DNA from: a virus
Lineage: Duplodnaviria > Heunggongvirae > Uroviricota > Caudoviricetes
IMG/VR virus record: IMGVR_UViG_2974569193_000001
Coordinates: 44,702-108,701 of that record
Length of the DNA stretch: 64,000 nt
Reading direction: 5' to 3' (one strand)
Shown: positions 2,956-57,074 of the stretch, in pieces
Position numbering within the stretch: position 1 is the first letter of the stretch
Layout: every line of letters begins with the position of its first letter
Made by a program: the position numbers and the translations under genes
The notes under the pieces: model-generated
Database searches by the model: none
The model's input: only the letters and a program-made list of their open reading frames with translations
Told to the model about the DNA's origin: nothing

Positions 2956-3099
2956 AGTGCGCCCCAGGTGCGCCTCTGACCGAGAAAGCCCGCTGGCCGT
3001 GGGTGAAGCGTAGGGTCAAGCGTCTGGGTCCCCGTCCTCCAGGACCGGCGAAGGCCATATGCGCCGAATTCCTGGTCAGGATCGCATGAGGGGAGCGCT
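2956..3099 (+). ncRNA. candidate long-hairpin RNA
   Basis: AGTGC..CCCC..GTGCG..CTGACC pairs with GGTCAG..CGCAT..GGGG..GCGCT; contains TAGGGTCAAGCGTC, which recurs at 57373. Confidence 0.45.
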
Positions 3100-6102: not shown

Positions 6103-6177
6103 GGTCATGTAGCTGAGACAGATTAGCGCCGGCGTGAAATCCCGGAGACGAGGATGCGAGCACCTCCTAGACCACCA
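6103..6177 (+). tRNA. tRNA-Phe(GAA), degenerate T arm and acceptor stem
   Basis: Loop GTGAAAT; D arm GCT..AGC; non-canonical T loop; ACCA. Confidence 0.6.
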
Positions 6178-56218: not shown

Positions 56219-56307
56219 TGGAGCTACGGGAGGGACTCGAACCCTCATAGGTGTCGCCACCAGCAGAGCTTTGCAGGCCCGCGCCTAACCTCTCGGACCA
56301 CCGTAGC
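56219..56307 (-). tRNA. tRNA-Cys(GCA) with long variable arm
   Basis: Reverse complement: GCTACGG..CTGCAAA..GGTG-GCGA-CACC..GAGGG-TTCGAGT-CCCTC-CCGTAGC-T-CCA. Confidence 0.85.
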
Positions 56308-56488: not shown

Positions 56489-56555
56489 CCGATCCTTATA
56501 GCGGAGCCTTCACGTGTCCGCAACGAAAAATGTGTCGTGAGCGACGACTTTTCTC

Positions 56556-56584
56556 TTGACAGTCCCGATTGGGCTCTGGTAGAG
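56556..56584 (+). promoter_or_regulatory. putative tmRNA promoter
   Basis: TTGACA-N17-GTAGAG. Confidence 0.55.
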
Positions 56585-56589
56585 AACAG

Positions 56590-56950
56590 GCATCGTTGTA
56601 ATTCGGACAACGGAAACGGCGGCAAGACAGGGGTGCGATTCCCCTCGCCTCCACCATGAGCCCCTGGCGCTGGGAGTACGCGACTCCTGGGCGGGGAGCG
56701 TTACCCCGACGGGATGCGTCCCGAGCAAAGGTGTAGCCAGGGTCTCATGATGGGGGCGATCAGTTTCGATTGGCGCATGTGACTGGAAGACGCAACGGTG
56801 GGTGACCTCCAGGCCAGCTTGCTGGTGATCGGGTCAGTGCAACAGAAATGTCGCATCGAACGACAACGACGTCGTGGCTTACGCCTCGGCTCGTGAAGCC
56901 ATCGCCGCCTAATAAGCGGTAGAGGCGTGTCCCGGCGGACGCGCGTGTCA
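56590..56950 (+). ncRNA. ssrA: circularly permuted (two-piece) tmRNA; outer ends approximate
   Basis: Acceptor piece ends ..CGCCTCC-ACCA (56656). Coding piece begins GGGGGCG (56752) and forms a 7-bp stem with G3-U70. Tag frame 56853-56915 reads ASNDNDVVAYASAREAIAA**. Confidence 0.9.
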
Positions 56951-57074
56951 CAAAAAGGCCCTGCATCTACGGACCGGGGCCAGTCCGCCTCCCACCTTTC
57001 GCAGGTGGGATCGTCATCATCGCGTGTCTGTCGGAAACTTCACGTAACCATTGACGATCCCATCTCCGTAAGGT

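Follow-up and report, generated by a model that had tools for sequence, protein, structure and literature searches.

A segment of phage DNA lying among tRNA genes raises the question of whether a Caulobacter phage carries a tmRNA gene of its own, in the two-piece form, and what such a gene might do during infection. The DNA analyzed here (the window: 64,000 nt from a virus record of 220,934 bp that is complete and has terminal repeats) is ~90% identical at this locus to Caulobacter phages RBC8, RBC11, and CcrRogue, and the gene is that of a phiCbK-like Caulobacter phage. The first-pass annotation had described a permuted, two-piece-type phage tmRNA, a claim borne out by the match to the Rfam family tmRNA_permuted (RF04321; 82.2 bits against a cut-off of 47), by covariation, and by gene layout. 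Since this match (56594-56912) covers the full model (positions 1-213 of 213) with an E-value of 3e-14, it is far beyond chance. The gene is complete, occupies 56594-56989 on the plus strand (Table 1), and is ordered as a 3' acceptor half, a 95-nt spacer, and a 5' half, with CCA ending at 56656 and G1 at 56752. Its features comprise an encoded CCA with A73 before it, an acceptor stem containing G3:U70, a T-arm, helix P2, and a tag frame that lies between two pseudoknots and has its stop codons in a hairpin loop. The Ala-type acceptor stem proposed earlier can be read directly from the letters: it has seven pairs, G3:U70 (56754:56650) among them, and G3:U70, A73, and CCA are invariant in 12/12 phage copies. 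Positions previously given for the end of the acceptor piece (56656) and for GGGGGCG (from 56752) were exact on re-reading of the sequence. The gene end at 56950 was too short, because the 3' pseudoknot closes only at 56989; a conserved hairpin continues to ~57010.

Table 1. Features of the tmRNA locus (window coordinates).
Feature	Position	Strand	Basis
Terminator-like hairpin and T-run, upstream of the tmRNA promoter	56533..56548	+	Pattern scan
Promoter-like TTGACA-N18-TAGAGA	56556..56585	+	CTTGACA (56555-61) invariant and in register in 10 Caulobacter-phage copies
Acceptor piece: P2 5' strands, T-arm 56629-56645 (loop UGCGAUU), 3' acceptor strand 56646-52, A73 56653, CCA 56654-56656	56594..56656	+	Rfam, covariation
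Intervening segment, 95 nt: closing stem extending the acceptor helix, three hairpins (four-way junction)	56657..56751	+	Fold z -3.1, covariation
Coding piece 5' end: acceptor 5' strand GGGGGCG 56752-56758, D-loop analogue AUCAGUUUCGA, P2 3' strands	56752..56797	+	Rfam, covariation
Pseudoknot 1 (PK1; GGG/UCC; UGACC/GGUCA), small hairpin in loop 3	56800..56836	+	Covariation
AAAUGUC, frame-setting region	56846..56852	+	Invariant in 12/12 phage copies
Candidate resume codon GUC	56850-52	+	Invariant; A at -4
Tag frame: GUC, GCA (56853)...GCC GCC (to 56909), UAA UAA 56910-15	56850..56915	+	Sequence reading, copy comparison
Hairpin with stop codons in loop	56905..56919	+	Fold, covariation
3' pseudoknot (PK2) with inserted hairpin	56925..56989	+	Fold, covariation
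Terminal hairpin, conserved, without U-tract; possible 3' end or processing signal	56990..57010	+	Fold, comparison

Detection of this gene depends on the tool. The Rfam alpha_tmRNA model (RF01849; cut-off 50 bits), originally proposed as a check, leaves the window copy below its cut-off, and the top match within the clan is beta_tmRNA (44.3 bits); relatives PW, Bajun, and Colossus score 53-67 bits on alpha_tmRNA, and host ssrA genes score 209-245 bits. ARAGORN called 25 tRNAs in the window and no tmRNA. At the syntenic site, between a tRNA gene (Cys, Gly, or Lys) and two tRNA-Met genes, RF04321 scored 69-90 bits in 10/10 relatives (Rogue, RBC8, BL64, phiCbK, Swift, Karma, BL57, Colossus, PW, and Bajun), and ARAGORN called a permuted tmRNA in six of them (phiCbK, Swift, Karma, BL57, PW, and Bajun). 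Because Rfam agrees with these six calls, we treat the ARAGORN miss in the window as a false negative. ARAGORN made no tmRNA call across the Rogue group (Rogue, RBC8, BL64, and the window) or in Colossus, and counts of phage tmRNAs that rely on this program are therefore too low.

Other RNA features were also recorded. A tRNA-Cys(GCA) gene (56219-56307, minus strand) of 89 nt with a long extra arm is the only minus-strand tRNA, and its position beside the tmRNA is conserved in Rogue, RBC8, BL64, Colossus, and PW. A skipping-rope RNA (Rfam RF02924; 48.6 bits versus 36.7) lies at 2855-2951 within the large tRNA array, and the segment at 6103-6174 gives a weak Rfam tRNA match (29.5 bits, at the cut-off) and no ARAGORN call.

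The full structure model has P2 in five segments, the T-arm and acceptor stem, PK1, the stop-codon hairpin, PK2, into which a hairpin is inserted, and, within the spacer, a four-way junction. When 56594-56800 was folded without constraints, the outer P2 stem and the T-arm were recovered, as was the acceptor stem together with its continuation into the spacer-closing stem (z -3.3). Pairs were counted by script on a 12-sequence alignment of phage copies, with slid partners and 500 shuffles as controls. In the core set of 37 pairs, 92% of cells were canonical and 12 pairs were compensatory, compared to 41-52% and 2-7, respectively, for slid partners; the full set of 92 pairs had 87% canonical cells and 35 compensatory pairs (10-15 in slid controls). 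For both sets, 0/500 shuffles reached the observed canonical count. The T-arm and acceptor stem were 100% canonical, with two compensatory pairs in the T-arm, while the five segments of P2, the long helix that takes the place of an anticodon arm, were 75-100% canonical and contained seven compensatory pairs. Stem 2 of PK1 was 100% canonical with two compensatory pairs (UGAUC/GAUCA and UGGCU/AGCCA in relatives), and stem 2 of PK2 reads GGCGGAC/GUCCGCC in the window, GGCGGGC/GCCCGCC in one IMG/VR relative, and GGAGGG/CCCUCC in Bajun. The tag frame follows PK1 and ends with Ala-Ala and a stop in a hairpin loop, after which comes the second pseudoknot. This layout agrees with the published two-piece architecture, in which PK1 and PK2 stand on either side of the tag and processing is probably performed by RNase P and tRNase Z.

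The tmRNA gene is probably driven by its own host-type promoter. The TTGACA-N18-TAGAGA pattern upstream is unique within the window (0 expected), and CTTGACA is kept in all 10 Caulobacter-phage copies while neighboring bases vary. The 18-nt spacing and the TAGAGA element predict an RNA start at ~56592-94, where the Rfam model begins (56594). We infer the promoter from these features because an E. coli-type promoter and terminator scan does not call the element; it returned neither a promoter nor a terminator for the tmRNA gene. The hairpin upstream of the promoter may insulate the unit from upstream transcription. No intrinsic terminator was found 3' of the gene. The possibility that the downstream hairpin (56990-57010) is a repeated phage signal was dropped, as elsewhere in the window it has only chance-level matches.

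The spacer is longer in the window (95 nt) and in relatives (81-118 nt) than in hosts (29-30 nt), and viral permuted tmRNAs in IMG/VR have spacers of 24-242 nt among the matches listed. Its fold is stable (z -3.1), all 11 pairs of its closing stem are compensatory, and two inner hairpins also covary. Beyond a 4-by-4 internal loop, in which ACCA faces UGAU, the closing stem prolongs the acceptor helix, an arrangement that would present both ends to tRNA-processing enzymes. The spacer is also the least conserved part of the gene in sequence (23-83% identity), and its architecture varies by lineage. A small gene within it was considered and rejected: the 26-aa ORF from 56656 lacks its ATG in phiCbK, Rogue, Colossus, and others.

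The frame GCA UCG AAC...GCC GCC UAA UAA (56853-56915), which encodes ASNDNDVVAYASAREAIAA followed by two stops, had been read as a 19-residue tag. This length is not supported as stated, and 20 encoded residues starting from an invariant GUC (56850-52) appear more likely. The motif AAAUGUC precedes the frame in 12/12 phage copies, and what follows GUC varies: GCA UCG AAC... in the window, GCC GCC AAU... in phiCbK, GCU GCA AAU... in Rogue and Bajun, AAC GCU GCA AAC... in BL9 and SC, and AAC GAC AAC... in Colossus and PW. In the latter two phages, GUC occupies the exact place of the host resume codon (host UAAAU|GCG AAC GAU AAC). Miller et al. 2008 found no upstream base more conserved than the A at -4 relative to the resume codon; this A is chiefly what sets the frame, and its replacement by U or C abolishes activity. 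The base at -4 (the equivalent of A86 of E. coli) would be A if translation resumes at GUC 56850 and U if it resumes at GCA 56853. Since GUC has the A at -4, and since ARAGORN places the tag start of relatives at the same Val, we consider GUC (Val) the probable resume codon, which would give 20 encoded residues (VASNDNDVVAYASAREAIAA), or 21 with the RNA-carried Ala; a 19-residue tag from GCA 56853 is a realistic, if less probable, reading. A Val resume codon is unusual.

Several features argue that this frame is translated: tag length differences between types are 6, 9, or 12 nt (multiples of 3), every phage copy ends in Ala-Ala followed by a stop, and the stops lie within a hairpin loop. The phage tags also retain the NDN motif and terminal Ala-Ala of ordinary tags. 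As had been claimed, the tag is longer than and distinct from that of the host (19-20 codons versus 13, REAIAA versus FAVAA); the tag frame of Caulobacter itself, ANDNFAEEFAVAA-stop, occurs without change in 55 Caulobacteraceae genomes.

The tag and the rest of the RNA appear to have different affinities. The tag of the window copy is 92% identical to that of phiCbK and 67% to that of Rogue, its 3' segment is 38% identical to phiCbK and 99% to Rogue, and its PK1 region is 78% identical to phiCbK and 95% to Rogue; the window copy thus reads as a chimera, with a Rogue-type backbone and a phiCbK-type tag. Rogue and Bajun, whose hosts belong to different genera, agree at every position of a 71-nt block that starts with AAAUGUC, takes in the tag and UAA UAA, and closes with the stop hairpin (Rogue locus 2956-3026, Bajun locus 1464-1534; window equivalent 56846-56921); outside the block, their tmRNAs are 33-64% identical. 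A metagenomic relative has one synonymous base difference in this segment. These patterns suggest that the tag cassette is exchanged between backbones; from sequence comparison, the mRNA-like module would be either exchanged between phages or held constant at the RNA level. We found no description of tag-cassette exchange or RNA-level constancy in the literature.

Similarity to the host gene is concentrated in particular parts of the molecule. Compared to C. vibrioides ssrA, the window copy is identical at 26/31 positions of the T-loop/acceptor end and 15/19 positions of the D-loop analogue, and by BLASTN only 26 nt align to host ssrA, at 88%. No phage-type copy was found among the 201 Caulobacteraceae genomes searched, one of which gave a 36-nt T-arm match. 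On these two grounds, recent capture from the host was rejected. The G at T-loop position 55 was likewise set aside as a possible defect, as host ssrA carries the same loop. Separately, a C. vibrioides contig without ssrA has a 29-nt, 93% match to the phage T-arm/acceptor end at 149017-149045, probably in the 3' half of a tRNA. Host likeness is retained in the parts expected to contact AlaRS, EF-Tu, and SmpB, with divergence elsewhere, which is the pattern that would be expected of an old phage gene using host factors.

We consider it likely that this is a functional permuted ssrA gene with its own promoter, two-piece processing, use of host AlaRS, SmpB, and EF-Tu, and a tag directed to host proteases. 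A single precursor, probably made from the gene's own host-type promoter, would be cleaved by RNase P on the 5' side of G56752, with trimming of the acceptor piece from its 3' end as far as the encoded CCA (56656). Processing would free the 95-nt spacer and leave an acceptor piece of ~63 nt base-paired to a coding piece of ~240 nt. The RNA would then be charged by host AlaRS via G3:U70 and A73 and be delivered to stalled ribosomes by host SmpB and EF-Tu. No SmpB gene was found in the complete 220,934-bp phage genome, in a search whose positive controls worked, and host SmpB would therefore have to be used; together with the host-like tRNA-like domain, this supports the presumption to that effect in the first-pass annotation. 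With GUC 56850 (or GCA 56853) as the point of resumption, the stalled chain would receive a tag with the end ...REAIAA, which host ClpXP-type proteases should recognize. Transcription, processing, charging, tagging, and benefit to the phage are all predicted here from sequence; we found no published processing, alanylation, SmpB-binding, or tagging results for these phages. An RNA-seq series of phiCbK infection is available (PMC10688885).

The benefit to the phage may be that ribosomes are kept free during infection, alongside the action of its tRNAs, Pth2, and RtcB. The phage genome encodes a Pth2-type peptidyl-tRNA hydrolase (133403-133687, minus strand) and an RtcB RNA ligase (138489-139619, minus strand), both outside the window, and the tRNAs, tmRNA, Pth2, and RtcB appear to constitute a translation-repair gene set. 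Rescue of ribosomes stalled by tRNA or mRNA cleavage is plausible and fits the context of ~25 tRNAs, Pth2, and RtcB. Caulobacter degrades its own tmRNA by RNase R during the cell cycle, and one idea is that the phage tmRNA could stay present while the host RNA is degraded.

Ordinary trans-translation with host SmpB, AlaRS, and EF-Tu is the best reading of the locus, but other roles could be imagined for such an RNA. It could be made and enter ribosomes or bind SmpB with the purpose of displacing host tmRNA, by giving tagged chains another fate with a different degron or by titrating SmpB, and not just of increasing the capacity for rescue. A tag that differs from the fixed host ANDNFAEEFAVAA on a host-like tRNA-like domain would suit this role, as would the conservation or exchange of the tag cassette as a unit (the 71-nt identical block in RNAs otherwise 33-64% identical), and a phage tmRNA consisting only of the tRNA-like domain (TLD), that of DS6A, is reported to inhibit host tmRNA (PMC4131195). 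However, the phage tags keep NDN and terminal Ala-Ala, and therefore normal proteolysis is the simplest expectation, while a pure SmpB decoy needs neither a conserved in-frame tag nor two pseudoknots; we regard displacement as improbable.

Two further explanations concern parts or origins of the gene rather than its tag. The excised spacer, with its four-way junction, could itself be a functional small RNA for which the tmRNA gene doubles as a processing scaffold: it is three times the host length, folds stably with covarying stems, and long spacers are common among viral permuted tmRNAs (24-242 nt among the matches listed). This is very unlikely, since no part of the gene is less conserved than the spacer, its architecture changes from lineage to lineage, its sole ORF is not conserved, and the covarying closing stem is simply explained by the need to present tRNA-like ends for processing. 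The ssrA gene is a frequent target of phage integration, with pieces of it often carried by phages, and the phage copy might accordingly be a decaying, functionless remnant of host ssrA acquired, for example, at an integration site. A remnant of this kind is hard to reconcile with a complete gene that has all identity elements present and covaries across four phage genera, or with the short BLASTN alignment to the host gene and its absence in phage-type form from the 201 Caulobacteraceae genomes searched; the pattern of conservation already contradicts this candidate, which we consider the least credible of the explanations weighed here. Ordinary trans-translation is retained as the preferred reading.

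A broader proposal goes beyond this reading. The tmRNAs of phiCbK-like phages may form a virus-only lineage that resumes on an invariant Val GUC and not on Ala; its AAAUGUC-tag-stop-hairpin module may recombine between backbones, so that the phage and not the host sets the degron on rescued chains; and the different 3' pseudoknot may evade the cell-cycle-timed RNase R degradation of Caulobacter tmRNA, prolonging rescue past the swarmer-cell stage that these phages infect. That all three parts hold jointly is doubtful, and we offer the proposal as speculation.

How much of this was already known? A previous analysis by Rfam found no functional RNA besides tRNAs in these phages (Gill et al. 2012), and the tmRNA is unannotated in GenBank in 10/10 Caulobacter-phage records examined. 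In the record of BL64 (PV745554), the opposite strand carries a CDS, BL64_127c, that spans the tmRNA (locus 711-1052); labeled a hypothetical protein, it is probably a spurious call. The record of Brevundimonas phage Bajun (ON529858) does annotate a tmRNA, and phage Shash has been reported with one. In an ARAGORN survey of phage genomes, Buchholz et al. 2022 (PMC9004378) arrived at 53 two-piece tmRNAs; phiCbK, Karma, Magneto, Swift, Ccr29, CcrPW, CcrSC, and CcrBL9 appear in their Table S1 as 'Permuted'. The Rogue, RBC8, BL64, CcrBL10 lineage and Colossus are absent from that table, as expected since ARAGORN misses such copies. The alpha-type T-arm/acceptor signature occurs in at least 119 viral contigs in IMG/VR, and nearly all of those listed have the permuted arrangement and a tag. 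Tags among the IMG/VR matches listed are very varied, and several share with Colossus and PW the reading V-N-D-N, in which no Ala codon follows Val.

The novelty implied earlier for the phage two-piece tmRNA is consequently not supported, given that sister phages were already tabulated as permuted and that the class is common in viral DNA. The widespread class of phage two-piece tmRNAs and the listing of sister phages are already known, and the general picture of this class is unchanged; what is new is the gene of the Rogue/CcrBL10 lineage, the probable GUC resume codon, the mosaic tag cassette, and the covarying four-way-junction spacer. For a model phage family, these results amend the existing annotation. 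Two-piece tmRNA, its cell-cycle control, and its proteolytic adaptors were elucidated in Caulobacter, and phiCbK can be manipulated genetically. This pair offers a convenient way to study the advantage of a phage-borne tmRNA, the point at which translation resumes if the first codon is not one for Ala, and whether the swapping of tag cassettes has a reason.

Among known systems, the two-piece tmRNA of C. crescentus and other alphaproteobacteria (Keiler, Shapiro and Williams 2000; RF01849) shares with the window copy the order of acceptor piece, spacer, and coding piece, an identical T-loop (UGCGAUU), G3:U70, A73, an encoded CCA, and the D-loop analogue AUCAGnnUCGA. In both, PK1 and PK2 enclose the tag, AAAU precedes its frame, and the tag has NDN close to its start and Ala-Ala at its end, with the stop in a hairpin loop. 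In contrast to the alphaproteobacterial RNA, the acceptor piece of the window copy is without a 5' hairpin, its spacer is longer (95 versus 29-30 nt), its P2 and PK1 sequences differ, its PK2 has an inserted hairpin, and its tag has the different length and end described above. The tmRNAs of sister phages (PMC9004378; Bajun ON529858) resemble it in lying at the same locus by two tRNA-Met genes, in AAAUGUC, and in a tag of the ...NDND...REAIAA family; these were found by ARAGORN and tabulated only, while the window copy combines a Rogue-type backbone with a phiCbK-type tag. The OM43 phage Melnitz and pelagimyophages (Buchholz et al. 2022) are likewise lytic phages with tRNAs and a permuted tmRNA, and early expression and use of host factors have been proposed. 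Melnitz differs in host clade and tag and has a glutamine riboswitch in the 3' domain, whereas the window has no Rfam riboswitch match. Finally, the mycobacteriophage (Bxz1 group) tmRNAs (Hudson, Lau and Williams 2014, PMC4131195) are phage-encoded and dependent on host SmpB but are one-piece and not permuted, and the TLD-only RNA of DS6A (PMC4131195) acts as an inhibitor without a tag frame, unlike the window copy, which has one.
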